From the NCBI GenBank assembly GCA_000092065.1, contig CP000592.1: 64,000 nucleotides of DNA; one strand, 5' to 3'. The stretch is from Ostreococcus lucimarinus (lineage: Eukaryota). Under the pieces are notes generated by a model. The model did not search any database. It was given only the letters and a program-made list of their open reading frames with translations, and had not been told where the DNA came from. The position numbers and the translations under genes are program-made. Shown piece by piece: positions 22,277-32,222 of this stretch. Position 1 is the first letter of the stretch. Every line of letters begins with the position of its first letter.

Positions 22277-23641
22277 CTACAGAAATTGTATCGAGCGGCA
22301 GCTTAAGGTGTCGATGTCGACCAAGACGGCGATGCCGGTGGATGAGAATTTCGGCACGGCGACGACGAGGGTGTCGGCGACTCCGGCGGCTGGGTCGTGG
22401 GAAACGCGCTCGTAGCCGAACGCGTCTTGACATCCCGCAAAGTACACTCGCGGGGTGCGTTCGATGACGAACGGATCGCGGTCTTTGAAAGGGTAACACG
22501 CCAACGTATCGGGGGCGCCCGGGGCGATGTGTTGCCATCGCAAGGTTTGAGTCAACGCGGCGACGGGACGTTTGGCGGCGGCGGCGCCGACAAAAGCGCT
22601 GGAGACGTCGTCGGCGTCGATGGTGCTAAATTTCATCACGTCTTCGACGTTTTGCCCAGACGTGCCCAGGAAAGAGGTCTGATCGACCGTCAAATCGTGC
22701 GGATTCGTCACTAAACACATCGTCTTTTCGTACTTTGACGCCTCGGGAAAGTACACCGGGTGCAGCGGTTGCTGCGGCATCGCCTTGTTCGTCGGGTCCG
22801 TCTTCCCGCTCATCACGTCCACGGGCACCGCGCTCGCGAGCTCGGCGAGCATGATGTCGAGTTCTTTGAGCGCTTCACTCGTCGCCGCCGAAGGTTCTTC
22901 CGAGCTCGTCTTTAAATCCATCGTCCCACCGGCGATGATGACGCGACAAATCTTCGCCGCGTCCGAGTCGCTCGGCGATTCGTCGCCGTAGGCGATGGAC
23001 GCCCCGGTGACGTAATCGACAAACATTTGATTGCGCGCCGACGCCGCGGCATCGTTGCCACCGATCTCAAATCCAGAGACCAAACACACGTATTTGGTCG
23101 CCGTCGATGCCTCGGACTTTGATTTCTTCGCCTCGCCCGTCGTCGGCGGCGCGTACGCCACGACGTCGTCGACGAGGAAATCTCCCTTCACCGCCTTCCC
23201 CTTCACCGCGCACACCACCCCGGTGACGAATTTCCCCGCGTCCACGCCCAGCAGTTTCACTCGCGCGCCCTCGTCCTCGAACTCTAGTCCATCGTCCTCG
23301 CGCGTGTACGTCGCCCGCTCCTCGCGCGTCGTCGCCGCCGCGCCCTCCGCCTCCTCGCCGTATCCCTTGACGTACTCGTCGAGTATGATTGGTTTATCCT
23401 TCATATCCTTATAAATCGTCCCCACGATGACGCACGCCTCGTCCTCGCACAGCTCCAGCACCGCGCGCGTCGGCATCGTCGGCCATCGCGCGCGCGCCGC
23501 CTCGCGCGCGCGCGGTTTCAGCGCCTGCAGCCGGTTAAAGTACAACTGAAAGTACTGCCCGTGCATCTTGTTCGCCAACGAGAATCGCGCGTCGTCGATC
23601 GCGCGCGTCGCCGACGCGCGCGTCGCGCCGTCGCCCGCCAT
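22277..23641 (-). CDS. POLD2: DNA polymerase delta subunit 2 (B-subunit, Pol31/POLD2)
   Basis: TNPHDLTVDQTSFLGTSGQNVEDVMKFS...LRWQHIAPGAPDTLACYPFKDRDPFVIERTPRVYFAGCQDAFGYE...AVLVDIDTLSCRSIQF closely parallels the POLD2 C-terminus. The start is placed at MAGDGATRA, upstream of MHGQYFQLYFNRLQ. The longer ORF to 24049 overlaps the divergent MSI1 gene. Confidence 0.8.
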   Translation of the reverse strand: MAGDGATRASATRAIDDARFSLANKMHGQYFQLYFNRLQALKPRAREAARARWPTMPTRAVLELCEDEACVIVGTIYKDMKDKPIILDEYVKGYGEEAEGAAATTREERATYTREDDGLEFEDEGARVKLLGVDAGKFVTGVVCAVKGKAVKGDFLVDDVVAYAPPTTGEAKKSKSEASTATKYVCLVSGFEIGGNDAAASARNQMFVDYVTGASIAYGDESPSDSDAAKICRVIIAGGTMDLKTSSEEPSAATSEALKELDIMLAELASAVPVDVMSGKTDPTNKAMPQQPLHPVYFPEASKYEKTMCLVTNPHDLTVDQTSFLGTSGQNVEDVMKFSTIDADDVSSAFVGAAAAKRPVAALTQTLRWQHIAPGAPDTLACYPFKDRDPFVIERTPRVYFAGCQDAFGYERVSHDPAAGVADTLVVAVPKFSSTGIAVLVDIDTLSCRSIQFL

Positions 23642-23728
23642 CGTCGAATCGGCGCGTCGCCGCGCGCGCGTCGCGCGTCGTCGAGTGCCGCGCCGCCGCC
23701 GACGTCCGGCGCGCGCGAGTGTGCGTAA

Positions 23729-25114
<1,386 letters not shown>

Positions 25115-25149: not shown

Positions 25150-25986
25150 TTAACACCGCGCCCAGCACCGATTACACTCGCCCAAGCACGCCTTACCTTC
25201 GCCCGCGCAATCCAAGTTGTTGCCGAGCGCTTGGGGCACGCGCACGACGTACTTGACGAAATTCCTCGTATCGCGCTTCATGAAGTAATTCTTCTCGATG
25301 TGTTCCGTCGCCGCCGTCAACTGCTCGACGTCGCACGCTAAAATTTCTGGTTGTTTCTTCACAATCTTCGCCAAATCACACTCCGACGCTCTCGTCGTCA
25401 CGCCGATCGATTCCAAAAACGCCACGCGCGCCGTCACATCCGCCGCCGTCGGCACCTCTCGCACCTTGGTGTTTCGCCAGTATCCTTGCCCGCGCCACCC
25501 GAACGCCTTTTCCATCATCGCGTCCACGTCGTCATCGTTCATTTCGTCGCCGTTCGCTCCCACGGCGTCGCGCACGACCGCGCGCGCGTCGTTCCAGAGC
25601 TTTCGCGCGTCGTCATCCATCGTCGACGTCGCGCGCGCGTCGACGTCGACGTCGGCGTCGTTCGTCGTCGACGCGCGGACGCGCGCGCGACGACGGCGCG
25701 CGCACCGCGTCGTCGCGCGCGTCATCGTCGGCGTCGTCGCGCGCGTCGCGCGCGGCGTCGGCATCGTCGTCGGCATCGCGGCGACGCGTCGCGAGATGGA
25801 GAGGTGTCGGCGTCTCGTCTCGGCGCGGCGTGTTTCATTCTTCGGTCTTCTTACAAGCGCCCGCGTAGGACGGCGCGACAAGTGTGGGTGGATAAATGTG
25901 TGAACGATCGAATGAAAGAACGTAAGGGCATGGAAGGCGCCGGGCGCCGCGGCGGACGCCGTCATAAATTCTCGGCGTTGGTACAA
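25150..25986 (-). CDS. mTERF-like protein (single or few repeats), probably organellar
   Basis: AADVTARVAFLESIGVTTRASECDLAKIVKKQPEILACDVEQLTAATEHI fits the mTERF repeat consensus. The N-terminus is Arg/Thr-rich. Confidence 0.4.
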   Translation of the reverse strand: MYQRREFMTASAAAPGAFHALTFFHSIVHTFIHPHLSRRPTRALVRRPKNETRRAETRRRHLSISRRVAAMPTTMPTPRATRATTPTMTRATTRCARRRRARVRASTTNDADVDVDARATSTMDDDARKLWNDARAVVRDAVGANGDEMNDDDVDAMMEKAFGWRGQGYWRNTKVREVPTAADVTARVAFLESIGVTTRASECDLAKIVKKQPEILACDVEQLTAATEHIEKNYFMKRDTRNFVKYVVRVPQALGNNLDCAGEGKACLGECNRCWARC

Positions 25987-25997
25987 AAAGACGTCGT

Positions 25998-28070
25998 TTA
26001 GGCTTCGGCGATCATCTTGCGAATCGCGTCCGTCGTCGCCTGGGTTAAGGTGGTGTTCTTCTTCTCAGCGTACGCTTGAAGCGCCTCGAACGCATCGCGC
26101 TCGATCATGACGCGCGGCAAACGCCCGACGGTCTCGACGGCGGCGGCGGTCGGCGCGGCGGCGGCGGCGGCGGCGACGGGGGCGGCGCTCGGAACGTACG
26201 AGTCGCAAAACGCGCGAAGCGCGTCGAACCCGACGCGATTGATAAAGTTGCCGAAGAACTCACCCGCATTGCGCTGCTGCGCCCACATGGCAAAGATGGG
26301 CTCAAAGAACGTTTCGATGTCATCCACCTTGACGCGCTCGGCGTACGCGCTCGACACGCCCGTCATCGCGCGCGTGCCTCCGAGCCAAATTTGGTAGCTC
26401 GCCGGACCGTCGCCGACGAAACCGAGCTCAGCCATGTACGGACGCGCGCAACCGTTGGGGCAACCAGTCATACGAATGACTAAGTCGTCCGACATCGCCA
26501 AGCCAACCTTGGTCATGGTCGTGCGCAAACGCGCGTTAATCTCCGGCAAACCGCGCTCGGCTTCGGTGATGGCGAGACCGCACAAAGGTAACGCCGGGCA
26601 CGCCATGGAGAGACGTTCGAGAGCGTCGACTTCGGACGCGTCTTTCACGCCCGCGGCTTGCAAAGTGGCCATGATATCCGCCTTCCACGCCGGATCGACG
26701 TCGGTGAGCAACATATCTTGCTGAGCGGTGAGACGAACCGGAAGTTCGTATCGCTCGATGACGTTGCGCAAAGCCTTCCTCATTTCGCCACGAAGACGAC
26801 CGTTTTGGACGTGCACACCGTACCAAAGCTTACCGTCGCCTTGTTCGTTCCATCCCAAGTACGTAGGGAATTCGAACGGCGCCAACTCAACGCCGGCTTC
26901 AAACTTCTTGCCGTAGTATTGCTCCGTCACCGTCTTGAATCGCTCCATGCCCCAGCTCTCGACCAAGTACTTCAATCTACTCTGCTTGCGATCATCGCGG
27001 CGACCGTAGTCACGCTGCGTGCACGTGATGGCCTTGACCGCGTACAAGATGTCGCGCGGTCCGCAGAAACCGAGAAGGGTGGCTGCCCGCGGGAACGTGG
27101 CGTCGTTGCGGTGCGAGCGCCCCATGCCACCGCCGACGTAAACGTTGTACCCGACGTGCTTGCCGTCGCGCATGACGACGACGATGCCGATATCGTTCGT
27201 CAAGACGTCGATGTGGTTATCGCCCTCCACGGTGACGCCAATCTTAAACTTACGCGGCAAGAATAACGAACCGTAAATGGGTTCGGGCGAACCCTCAAAG
27301 TTGGTGCCGTGGCGGTTTTCCATGCGCGCCGCCGTCACTTCGGGCTTTTCAGCCGTCATGATTTGCTCGCCGTCGAGCCAGACGTCGTAATACGCCCCGC
27401 TTTGCGGCGCCAACAAGTCGGCGATATCTTTGGCCAGTTCTTGCGCGATATCATACTCCGGTTTGTTGGCGTACGGCGCCGGAGACGCGGTGACGTTGCG
27501 ATTGATGTCTCCGCACGCCCCCAACGTTGAACCCATGTTACGAATCACCGTCGCGAACGTTTCCTTCAGGTCGCTCTTCAAGATTCCGTGCAATTGATAC
27601 GTTTGTCGCGTCGTCAATCGCAGCGTTCCGTTCCCGTGCGTGTTCGCCAAGTCATCCATGGTCAGGTACAACTTGTTCGGCACCTTGCCCGCGGGCTGCT
27701 TCGTGCGCATCATGAATTGATAAAACTTCCCCTCCCCGAACGCTCGCTTCTCTCGATCGTCCTGTTGATACCCGCCGTGAAACTTATACAACTGCGCCGC
27801 GTCCTCGGAGATGTTCGACGCCGTCGTCGCCAACTCCTCGATCAGCGGGTGTCGCAGGTAGTCGCTGTTTTCCTTGATGATTTCAACCTTGCTTCGCTTC
27901 GCCGGTTCCTTCTGCGCGCCCGAGCTCGGCGTCGCGACGTTCGTCACGACGCACCGTCGGTTCTTCGCGCGCTTCACCGTCGTCCCCGCGCGCGTCACCG
28001 CGCGGTGCGCTCGCGTCGCCGGCGTCGGCACCGCGCGCGCCATGGTCGATCGCTCGGCACCGATTTTCAT
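25998..28070 (-). CDS. SIR: Ferredoxin-sulfite reductase (siroheme, plastid type) with a C-terminal extension
   Basis: [23 protein letters not shown], the siroheme/4Fe-4S block [31 protein letters not shown] and [11 protein letters not shown] transit-peptide-like N-terminus. About 80 extra C-terminal residues. Confidence 0.85.
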
Positions 28071-28335: not shown

Positions 28336-29319
28336 CTATCCGCGCCGACGCGGGAACAGCGCGCCTCGATCGCGCGGGTACGCGTCGCCGAAGGTTTTTA
28401 AATACCACGCGTGGTGCGAAGACGCGACGCACGCGAGGTTGGCGACGACGGCGGCGAGCAGGGCGAGCGGGGCGAGACGCGGGACGCGCGCGGCGACGAC
28501 GGCGGACGACGACGACGCGCGCGATACCGACGACACCGACGGACGCGCGGAGACGGAGAGCTTGCCGAGGAAGACGTCGGTGGGAACGACGATGAGCGCG
28601 AGACCGAGGTAAAGGACGATCTCGGCGAGGTAGTGCGCGCAGGAGACGCGCTCGAACCAACCGCCGCGCGGGATAAAGTATCGCGAGCGGCGCGCGACGT
28701 CGGCGTCGGCGTCGCGCGCGCTCGAGGACGGCGCGCTCGGTTCGCGCAAACGCGCGAGTATGACGTGACACTCGTACTGCCGATAATTTCCGAGCGCGAA
28801 CAGCGCGACGCCGAGCGCGCCGAGCGCCGTCGCCGCGAGCGTCTCGAGCGGCTCGAGCGTCGTCTTCGCCGCGTCGCCGCAGTCGTACGCCGCCCACGTC
28901 TTCGGCGCGCACACGTAATACGCCAACCCGCCCGCGTACACGATCGCGTGCATCGTCGCGTCGTCTCCGTACGTGCTCACGCGCGCGCTCTCGTACAATC
29001 TCCTCAAACAGTGCGCCTGAAACAGCGTCGCCGCGACGACCGCCGCGCGCGCGTCCGCCCGTCCCGTCGCCGCGCCTCTCGCCCACAGCCTCGCCAGCTC
29101 GCGCGCGTTCGCCGCGCACCCGACGACGTAAAAGTGTCGAAACCACGCGTGCGGCGCTCGTCCGCGCTTCAGTCCCTTCCCGTCCTTGCCTCGCGCCGCC
29201 GCGCCGCGCGCCGCCTCGACGTCCCGTCGCGCCGCGACGAGCGCGCTGCACGTCACGAGCGCGAGCCACGTCAGCGCGAGCGCGACGTTCGCCGTCGAGT
29301 CATCGTCCCAGTCCCACAT
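28336..29319 (-). CDS. Polyprenol reductase / steroid 5-alpha-reductase family protein (SRD5A3/DFG10-like)
   Basis: WFRHFYVVG near the N-terminus. C-terminal [30 protein letters not shown]...[22 protein letters not shown] matches the 3-oxo-5-alpha-steroid 4-dehydrogenase C-terminal domain. The start is placed at MWDWDDD. Confidence 0.7.
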
Positions 29320-29620
29320 CCTCCGGCGTCCCGCCCCGCGCGCCGACGTCTGCGCGCCGCGCGTTTCGCGTCGCGTCGGTCGCGTCCCGGCGGCCCACCG
29401 AAACACCCACCAGTGGCGAACGACAAAAACACCCGGGAGCGCGCGCCGACGCGACGGCTCGACGATTGACCCGACGCGACGTTTCGCACACGTCGACGCC
29501 TCGACGCGCGACGCCACGCGACGCGCCGAGAACCTCGCGCGAGAACCTCTACTCAACGCTCGCCGCTTCCGAGCGCGAAACGTCGACGCGAAGACCGACC
29601 TCGAGCGATCGAAACGCAAG

Positions 29621-32222
29621 ATGAGCGTCGTCGGGATCGACTTCGGGAACGCGAATAACGTCGTCGCGCTGGCGCGAAGGAAAGGGATCGACGTCGTGCT
29701 GAACGACGAGTCCAAGCGAGAGACGCCGAGCATGATTAATTTCGGGGACAAGCAGGCGCGTGGAGAAAAAAAACGCTCGGCGAGGCGAGCGACGACGCGC
29801 GAACGAAGAGACAGATGAAGATGAAGCTTCTTCTTTTTCATTCCTCGAGCGAACCGAGAGACGAGAGCGATGGGGCGACGGCGAACGGGAGGGGCGACGC
29901 GGTGATGAAGACTGACGATTGGTGGATGATTTTCGCGACGCGCAGCGATTCGTCGGGTGCGCGGCGGCGGATAAGATTAACATGCAACCGAAGAACACGC
30001 TGACGCAGCTCAAGCGCTTGATTGGGAAAAAGTACGACGACGTCGAGGCGCAGAGCGATTTGCAAAACTTGCCGTTCGCCGCCAAGCGCGGAGCGAACGG
30101 GGAGTTGATGTTTACCATGCAGTACATGGGGGAGACGCGAGATTTCGTGCCGGAACAGTGCGTAGCGGCGATTTTGGCTGATTTGAAGAGAATCGCGGAG
30201 AACGACAACGGCACCAAGGTGACGGATTGCGTCATCTCGGTGCCAGTCTTCGCCACGGACGCGGAGCGCCGCGCGATGCTGGATGCGGCGTCGATTTGTG
30301 GCTTGAACGTGTTGCGATTGATGCACGAAACTACGGCGACGGCGTTGGCGTACGGGATCTTCAAAACCTCAGAGTTCACCGACGAGCCGGTGAACACGGC
30401 GTTCATCGACGTCGGTCACTCTGCGATGCAAGTGTGCATCGCGCAGTTCACGAAGAAGGGGTTGAAGATTCTGTCTACCGGTTTCGACCGAAACTTGGGT
30501 GGACGCAACTTTGATGAAGTCATGTTCGATCACTTTTGCGAAGAGTTCAAGGCGTCGAAGAAGATTGACATTCGTTCCAACGCTCGCGCGTCGCTTCGTC
30601 TGAAGACGGCGATCGAGAAGATGAAGAAGATTCTTTCCTCGAACCCGGAGGCGCCGCTCAGCATCGAGTGTCTCATGGATGATGTCGACGTTCAATCGAT
30701 GATGACTCGTGAGAAGATGGAAGAGCTCGCGGCGGACACGATCTCCAAGCTCATGGGCCCGGTGGAGACGGCGGTGAAGGAAGCCGGACTCACCGTGGAC
30801 GACATCTCTGCCGTCGAACTCGTTGGCAACGCTTCGCGCATGCCCGCCATTTCGAGTCGACTTCAAGAGTACTTCGGCAAGGTGCCGGGGCGCACGGTGA
30901 ACGCGTCAGAGTGCGTGGCGCGCGGTTGCGCGCTTCAAGGCGCCATGCTTTCGCCACTCTTCCGCGTGCGCGAGTTTGAAGTTCAAGACTCGTTCCCGTT
31001 CCCGATCTCCGTTGCGTGGGCCAGCGATGACGGCACGAACAAGACGATGGAACTTTTCGAGCGCAATAACTTAGTTCCCAGCACCAAGCTCATGACATTC
31101 TTCAAGAACGACAAATTCTCCATTCAAGCGAGTTACGCCGGAAGTGAGCTTTTGTCCGAGTCCACAGAACCCGTCGTCGGCACGTACGAAATCGGCCCGT
31201 TCGCAAAAGCCGCGGATGGTGAGAAACAAAAACTCAAGGTGAAAGTACGTTTGAACCTGAACAGTTTGGTCACTGTCGAATCCGCGCAAGTCGTGGAGGA
31301 AATCGAAGAAGAGGAAGCGCCGGCGCCGGAGGAAGAGATGAAGGACGAAGCCGCGCCGCCAGCCGACGGCGCGGAGGGCATGGAAACCGACGCCGCGAGC
31401 CAGGAACCCAAGGCGGAGGAGCCAAAGGCGGAGGAAAAGCCCCCGGCCAAGAAGAAGGTTAAAAAGACGGACGTACCGGTGACGAGCCACGTCGGCGGTT
31501 TGCCGCCAAAAATCGTCGAGCGCTTCACCAACGAAGAGTACGACATGGCACTGCAGGACAAGGTGATAGAAGAGACGAAGGAGCGCAAGAACGCCGTCGA
31601 GGAGTATGTGTATAGCATGCGCTCTAAGATTGCCGAACAACTCGCCGAGTACGTCGATGACGCCACTCGCGAGAGCTTCAACGCGCTGTTGAACGCCACG
31701 GAGGATTGGTTGTACGAGGATGGCGAGGACGAGACCAAGGGTGTGTACGTGAACAAGCTCGAAGAACTCAGAGCGATCGGAGAGCCCATCGTCGGCCGCG
31801 AGAGAGAAGAAAGCGAACGCCCCGGCGCGATCGCCGCGCTCACGGCGTTGGCCGAAAACTTCTTGTCCCTGGCTGGAGATGAGGCGCACGCCCACATCGA
31901 CGCCGCAGACTTGGAAAAAGTTGCGCAAGAGTGCAACGACGCCCTGGCGTGGTTGAACGAAAAGGCTACTCTGCAAGCCGCCACGCCGAAGACGCAACCG
32001 GCTGTTTTGTTGATTTCGGACATAGACAAGAAGCGTGCCACGTTAGAGCGCGTCGCGACGCCCATTTTGAGCCGCCCCAAGCCGGCGCCAAAGGTTGAGA
32101 CGCCGCCGCCCGCGGCTGAAGACGCCGAACCGATGGACGACGGCACCGCCGAAGAAGGCGCCGAAGAAGGCGAAGAGGCAAACGATGAGGCCATGGATGA
32201 CGCTGCGGACTCTCTCGACTGA
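29621..32222 (+). CDS. Hsp110/Sse1-type Hsp70-family chaperone; exon 1 29621..29755 and exon 2 29946..32222
   Basis: Exon 1 encodes MSVVGIDFGNANNVVALARRKGIDVVLNDESKRETPSMINFGDKQ. Exon 2 continues RFVGCAAADKINMQPKNTLTQLKRLIGKKY..., collinear with plant HSP91 (FGDKQRFIG). There is a long C-terminal acidic tail. The exact donor position is not resolved. Confidence 0.85.
29756..29945 (+). other. Intron of the Hsp110 gene (apparent GC-AG type)
   Basis: A 190-nt intron is required to join DKQ to RFVG in frame. No GT is available at the junction and the intron would begin gcgcgt. The branch-like agactgacg sits 31 nt before the acceptor cgcag. Confidence 0.5.

Follow-up and report, generated by a model that had tools for sequence, protein, structure and literature searches.

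The 64,000-nucleotide stretch of Ostreococcus lucimarinus DNA analyzed here (contig CP000592.1 of assembly GCA_000092065.1; hereafter the window) is nuclear DNA of a prasinophyte green alga, and its minus strand encodes a ferredoxin-sulfite reductase (SiR) with a 43-residue C-terminal tail. We conclude with high confidence that this tail adopts a ribbon-helix-helix (RHH) fold and that its orthologue in nucleoid-type land-plant SiRs is the C-terminally encoded peptide (CEP). The putative RHH module spans aa 648-690 (26001..26129, minus strand) and reaches the stop codon, placing it at the extreme C-terminus of SiR as expected of a C-terminally encoded peptide. An initial annotation of the sequence had described the peptide, placed it at 25998-26140 behind an Ala-rich linker, and read it as an RHH motif of the Arc/MetJ/CopG type. 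The first three particulars match the translation of the open reading frame (ORF), and the RHH reading is borne out by the predicted structure, by a profile comparison with solved RHH proteins, and by the Pfam matches of sister tails. The idea of an RHH tail with a nucleoid role was already published in 2016, and the Ostreococcus enzyme adds one more example to a class already described.

Structure prediction returned the same arrangement for the isolated tail and for the complete enzyme. An AF2 model of the 43-residue tail, computed with 85 aligned tails, had a pLDDT of 94.5 and showed an extended stretch (residues 1-10) followed by helices at residues 11-23 and 28-42, while the full-length SiR model placed helices at 658-670 and 675-689 with a pLDDT of 83-95. 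By secondary structure assignment with DSSP, these correspond to helix A (aa 658-670; 26061..26099, minus strand) and helix B (aa 675-689; 26004..26048, minus strand). Ahead of helix A lies the predicted ribbon strand PRVMIE (aa 652-657; 26100..26117, minus strand), extended and non-helical in both models, and between the helices lies the turn KNTT (aa 671-674; 26049..26060, minus strand), which column conservation equates with the G/N-x-T/S loop of the family. The module is preceded by a flexible Ala/Pro-rich linker (aa 629-647; 26130..26186, minus strand), and pLDDT falls below 50 at 636-650 in the full-length model. The models thus show an intact SiR core followed by a flexible, disordered tether, at whose end an RHH-type module folds on its own. 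When the tail model was searched with Foldseek, nearly all of the top 50 matches were RHH proteins, the best with TM scores of 0.75-0.85, and the predicted structure is a module of ~40-45 residues (strand, helix A, turn, helix B) that superposes on solved RHH chains. Structure prediction and fold comparison against RHH proteins, by which the initial annotation had suggested that its reading be judged, therefore came out in favor of that reading.

Sequence comparison leads to the same fold at the family level. A profile built from 85 SiR tails and compared with solved proteins matched the RHH proteins AvtR (4hv0, E 3e-7), VapB26 (7e-4), MazE7 (0.012) and StnY (0.047), and it aligned with CopG (1b01) in the register 7-41 to 7-41 at an E-value of 0.12, which is not significant alone. 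Pfam assigned RHH_5 to 31 of the 85 tails and RHH_1 to 24. A profile search of 1.84 billion representative proteins yielded 494 matches, among them SiR fragments and free-standing RHH proteins that pass the Pfam thresholds for RHH_1 or RHH_3 (e.g., P0260, RHH_1 at 1.5e-9). We noted two further matches unrelated to SiR, one of 362 aa with about six tandem RHH-like units (P0142) and one of 93 aa in which an RHH is fused to HTH_17 (P0195). A metagenomic SiR fragment (P0318) carries a precomputed Pfam RHH_5 match beside NIR_SIR.

Closer inspection of the aligned tails revealed the RHH signature of an alternating hydrophobic/polar strand, a helix A core and a G-x-S/T/N-type turn, the turn that precedes helix B in RHH families generally. 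V, I or L occupies columns 7 and 9 in almost every tail, and L17 and A21 are near-invariant, with conservation of 90% or higher. Among the 85 green tails, 82 have G or N in column 25 and 83 have T or S in column 27, where cyanobacteria have P. Column 6, which aligns with Thr6 of CopG, is Arg in 57/59 cyanobacterial tails, R or K in 47/85 green tails and K or R in angiosperms; strand columns 4, 8 and 10 vary widely between lineages. By analogy with CopG, V654 and I656 would face the core of the Ostreococcus module, and R653 and M655 would occupy the side equivalent to the DNA-contacting face of CopG.

Several observations weigh against the RHH assignment and bear on an alternative in which the tail has some other structure, either a helical hairpin such as an ANTAR-like one or a peptide packed against the catalytic core. 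The Foldseek E-values, at 0.4-5, are not significant, a consequence of the short, 43-residue query. Taken alone, the Ostreococcus tail matches no Pfam RHH family, whether submitted as the last 71 aa or as 43 aa, and its sole Pfam match is a sub-threshold one to the ANTAR RNA-binding domain (PF03861) at E 0.024. A word-indexed search with a 46-aa tail was uninformative, its sole matches being two fragments of that tail. Weak ANTAR matches occur in 31/85 tails, the best at 3e-4, but every one of them is under the gathering score and spans just 21 of the 54 profile positions, and the fold searches, which contradict them, make an ANTAR-like hairpin unlikely; we therefore rejected ANTAR as the identity of the domain. 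The lack of a DSSP beta strand in the monomer models of both the tail and full-length SiR could also be read in favor of a non-RHH fold. RHH domains, however, fold only as intertwined homodimers, and a lone chain cannot pair its strand without a partner. Packing onto the core is likewise at odds with the predicted disorder of the linker. We thus consider a non-RHH tail very improbable and retain the RHH assignment.

The enzyme ahead of the tail is well defined. Its coding sequence, at 25998..28070 on the minus strand, is complete and intronless according to the ORF list, Pfam and its RefSeq counterpart, encodes 690 aa, and ends in a TAA stop that reads 'tta' on the plus strand at 25998-26000. 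The product is 100% identical across 690 aa to XP_001420730.1, the RefSeq sulfite reductase of Ostreococcus lucimarinus CCE9901. Pfam detected NIR_SIR (3.9e-48) and NIR_SIR_ferr (3.3e-25), each family in two stretches, and the best solved relative by phmmer was maize ferredoxin-SiR (5h8v_A, E 1.2e-231), aligned to aa 56-628 without large gaps. Because the maize alignment covers these residues, the SiR core must end ~60 residues ahead of the stop. This catalytic core (aa 56-628; 26187..27905, minus strand) is that of a siroheme/4Fe-4S sulfite reductase, and Cys491, Cys497, Cys537 and Cys541, invariant in the 85-sequence alignment, are the four cysteines that ligate the 4Fe-4S cluster and siroheme in SiR. 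The paired NIR_SIR and NIR_SIR_ferr domains, the four cysteines and the similarity to 5h8v identify an assimilatory ferredoxin-sulfite reductase (EC 1.8.7.1), and the plastid-type ferredoxin-SiR named by the initial annotation is upheld by Pfam, the maize structure and the RefSeq identity. Residues 1-53 (27912..28070, minus strand) are unconserved and predicted to be disordered (pLDDT <50), the maize match beginning at aa 56, and we presume them to be a plastid transit peptide.

We asked whether the tail is translated and under selection by comparing 39 tail codons with those of three Ostreococcus-like relatives from metagenome contigs, which share 82-90% protein identity. Across these relatives synonymous sites were near saturation (pS 0.69-0.79) and pN was 0.05-0.09, giving pN/pS ratios of 0.07-0.13. 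The SiR tail is under strong purifying selection. Transcript-derived orthologues from MMETSP, such as P0015, terminate in the same tail. An upstream stop caused by an unrecognized intron, which the initial annotation had named as grounds for abandoning its proposal, can accordingly be set aside: the contiguous maize SiR alignment, the identity to the RefSeq model, the MMETSP tails and the pN/pS values together exclude both an overlooked intron and an earlier stop. Two plus-strand ORFs that overlap this region, at 26076-26483 and 26107-26397, are Arg/Gly/Ala-rich artefacts of GC-rich sequence.

We then examined how widely the tail is distributed, using a tail HMM iterated from the Ostreococcus sequence and tested on the 120 closest full-length SiRs. 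In this green-lineage set the HMM matched the C-terminus of 95 of 120 proteins, including those of Ostreococcus, Micromonas, Bathycoccus and further prasinophytes (Pycnococcus, Cymbomonas, Pyramimonas and Tetraselmis), and also those of Trebouxiophyceae, Ulvophyceae, Mesostigma, Chlorokybus, Closterium, a liverwort and a lycophyte. Within the same set no match was obtained in Volvocales (Chlamydomonas, represented by Chlamydomonas schloesseri, Volvox, Gonium, Astrephomene and Edaphochlamys), in Helicosporidium, Auxenochlorella or Parachlorella, or in truncated fragments. The Volvocales SiRs P0054, P0061, P0073, P0074 and P0077 carry, in place of the RHH tail, low-complexity C-termini rich in Ala, Gly and Asn, with Ala-rich and (NG)n segments, and end in ...GKQL(A/T)(A/T)(K/R). 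Other Chlorophyceae SiRs (P0057, P0076, P0095, P0105 and P0119) have a degenerate tail with a poorly conserved strand. Two full-length SiRs, P0034 from Cymbomonas tetramitiformis and P0046 from a Trebouxia sp., are named 'transcriptional regulatory protein' in NCBI, and these names may reflect automatic annotation reacting to the RHH tail.

Among angiosperms, SiR fragments from Cephalotus, Hibiscus, Victoria, Camellia, Papaver, Ensete and Magnolia end in RYNLKLFADKxTYEAMxELAKLQNKxAHQLAMEVIRNYVAxQQNGKxE. The tail HMM matched most of these tails in register at E-values of 3e-8 to 5e-4 (Cephalotus, Hibiscus, Victoria, Camellia, Ensete and Magnolia), and they start and finish like the primers for the bean peptide PvCEP listed by Kobayashi et al. 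(PMC4898807). The tail HMM thus establishes homology between the Ostreococcus tail and the land-plant CEP through angiosperms, streptophyte algae, a liverwort and a lycophyte. This alignment with algal and plant SiR C-termini, another comparison put forward in the initial annotation, substantiates the link it drew to nucleoid-type land-plant SiR, the angiosperm C-terminal peptides being homologous and in register.

The same annotation had considered the extension plant-specific or lineage-specific, and here the data point the other way. We scanned bacterial genomes with the C-terminal 166 aa of SiR and translated each of the resulting 80 loci to its stop. Most of the cyanobacterial SiR loci examined carry the tail (Nostoc, Fischerella, Leptolyngbya, Microcystis, Planktothrix, Microcoleus, Prochloron, Trichodesmium and others), with tail-HMM E-values down to 1e-12 and the pattern R-H/R-R-V/I-x-V-..-Y-..-LK-..-A-..-GKPMT-..-EA-..-YL following a variable linker. 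The stop falls directly past the core, without a tail, in some Synechococcales, Cyanobium and Chamaesiphon loci and in Verrucomicrobia loci. Since most cyanobacterial SiRs carry it, the tail is ancestral and of cyanobacterial origin, neither plant-specific nor lineage-specific, and the fusion of SiR to an RHH therefore predates the plastid and was inherited. It was subsequently lost in some lineages, namely Volvocales in our data and grasses and brassicas according to the literature. Linker length and sequence differ among orthologues; at the extremes, Bathycoccus has ~7 aa and Trichodesmium-type cyanobacteria have >200 aa. In SiRs from Trichodesmium sp. and Microcoleaceae metagenome-assembled genomes (L060 and L064, respectively), the >200 residues between core and tail are of low complexity and partly tandem-repeated, with units such as 'TPTNLDEE(V/L)GQPTV' and 'SQPVSQPGQSF'; the Nostoc linker has ~15 residues.

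These results fall within an account already in the literature. According to Kobayashi et al. (Genome Biol Evol 2016; PMC4898807), nucleoid-type SiRs share a CEP of ~50 aa that models as an RHH on the CopG 1B01 template, is missing from maize and Arabidopsis SiR, and occurs in cyanobacterial and red-algal SiRs as well. The RHH reading offered in the initial annotation largely restates this published finding. In the same source, fusion of the bean PvCEP to Arabidopsis SiR (AtSiR) relocated the enzyme from the stroma to chloroplast nucleoids; green algae go unmentioned in the text of that paper. The C. reinhardtii enzyme reportedly lies close to the pyrenoid and may have no association with nucleoids (PMC4758235), and both this location and the tail-less SiRs of Volvocales fit the CEP account. 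The maize SiR in the PDB, which ends at the core without a C-terminal peptide, fits as well.

We favor, with moderate confidence, a model in which the Ostreococcus tail, as an RHH and CEP orthologue, pairs into a dimer and holds the enzyme on plastid DNA. The PRVMIE strands of two SiR tails would come together as an antiparallel, two-stranded ribbon. Read in register with CopG, this ribbon would direct Arg653 and Met655 from both chains toward the major groove of DNA, and the N-terminus of helix B, with its K-N-T-T turn, would sit on the phosphate backbone. The outcome would be a dimer of active SiR anchored to plastid DNA, and, like the land-plant enzyme in published reports, it would probably discriminate little between sequences. 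The parts of this model differ in strength: dimerization through the tail is likely, and the chances of DNA or nucleoid binding in this alga are about even.

Two further observations weigh against the DNA-binding step. The Ostreococcus tail is roughly neutral overall and keeps one Arg on the presumed DNA face, compared with a strongly basic arm in cyanobacteria; the charge of arm plus strand is +1 in Ostreococcus, 0 to +2 in angiosperm CEPs and +3.7 on average in cyanobacterial tails. In addition, red-algal SiR (CmSiR) and cyanobacterial SiR are cited in PMC4898807 as not nucleoid-localized despite carrying a CEP, and the tail alone is therefore no guarantee of nucleoid binding. Both points favor the alternative that the tail serves solely for dimerization or the binding of a partner protein, with no DNA binding in this alga. 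RHH domains are obligate dimers, and many of the closest structural matches of the tail are antitoxins, in which the RHH is part of a protein-binding molecule. Such antitoxins, however, also bind DNA through their RHH part, and the basic residue in column 6, for which pure dimerization has no need, is kept from cyanobacteria to angiosperms. Low basicity is itself a weak argument against DNA binding, as the charge of the Ostreococcus tail resembles that of angiosperm CEPs, whose bean member suffices to move AtSiR to nucleoids (PMC4898807). We accordingly regard a role confined to dimerization or partner binding as possible but unlikely, and retain the DNA tether as our preferred explanation.

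A more specific regulatory role would make SiR a PutA-like trigger enzyme, an operator-specific RHH repressor or activator that couples sulfite or redox status to gene expression. In this scenario the targets would be sulfur-assimilation or plastid genes, located originally on the cyanobacterial chromosome, then on the plastid genome in algae and perhaps still so in prasinophyte plastids, a history that we consider improbable. Classical RHH proteins are operator-specific regulators, and the fusion of enzyme and RHH is ancient and widespread in cyanobacteria, where the R-H/R-R-V strand is strongly basic and highly conserved; it is this architecture and this conserved basic strand that speak for the idea, and they leave it at long odds. 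A redox-sensor role was also raised as a possibility by Kobayashi et al. (PMC4898807). By contrast, reviews describe land-plant SiR as compacting DNA in bulk, and the columns that would read bases (4, 8 and 10) are those that vary between lineages, a pattern that speaks against a conserved operator. We thus judge operator-specific regulation to be a poor candidate compared with the relatively nonspecific tether that we prefer.

With the RHH nature and nucleoid-targeting role of the SiR peptide published in 2016, these results have little discovery value in themselves. Their modest value lies partly in charting the module, which occurs in early-branching green algae (Mamiellales and other prasinophytes), in most of the other chlorophyte and streptophyte SiRs sampled and in most of the cyanobacteria sampled, but not in Volvocales. 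Ostreococcus, whose plastid genome is 72 kb and in which O. tauri is transformable, would offer a simple system for asking whether, and why, the tail tethers SiR to plastid DNA.

The genes flanking SiR were assessed from their domain matches. Immediately downstream, ~12 nt past the SiR stop, the ORF at 25150-25986 (minus strand) matches mTERF weakly, at E 4e-4 and with a score of 19.8 bits that falls short of the 23.1-bit cut-off. This could place an organellar transcription-termination-factor-like protein beside a putative plastid DNA-binding enzyme, and the adjacency is probably a coincidence. Beyond it, 23816-25114 (plus strand) encodes a histone-binding WD40 protein of the RBBP4/MSI1 type (CAF1C_H4-bd, 3.7e-32), arranged head-to-head with the gene for DNA polymerase delta subunit 2 at 22277-24049 (minus strand; DNA_pol_D_N 5e-35, DNA_pol_E_B 2e-34). 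Because the ORF called mechanically for the polymerase subunit extends into the WD40 gene, translation of the subunit must in fact begin further inside that ORF. Upstream of SiR, the ORF at 28336-29841 (minus strand) contains a 3-oxo-5-alpha-steroid 4-dehydrogenase domain (Steroid_dh, 2e-18) and is probably a polyprenol or steroid reductase.

Among known systems, the closest counterpart of the Ostreococcus tail is the CEP itself, with which it shares an extreme C-terminal position past the ferredoxin-SiR core, a length of ~45-50 aa and a predicted RHH fold; the angiosperm CEPs and the cyanobacterial tails are homologous to it in sequence and lie in the same register. The tails of Ostreococcus and other Mamiellales differ from the CEP in their strand, RLPRVM(I/V)ER, in an N-T-T turn instead of G-K-T/S, and in the Ala/Pro-rich linker. 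Free-standing RHH proteins (CopG, Arc, MetJ, Omega, AvtR/SvtR and the N-domains of VapB/MazE/ParD; RHH_1 and RHH_5) resemble the SiR tails in their strand of alternating hydrophobic residues and in their G/N-x-T/S turn. They are, however, regulators of 45-100 aa, whereas the SiR module is fused through a disordered linker to the C-terminus of a ~65-kDa metabolic enzyme, and we know of no operator for it. PutA of Escherichia coli and Salmonella, whose RHH is among the structural matches of the tail (2jxg and 2rbf), likewise joins a redox enzyme to an RHH module, although its enzyme family is unrelated to SiR. The PutA RHH binds specific put operators as an autorepressor and is N-terminal, in contrast to the C-terminal module of SiR.

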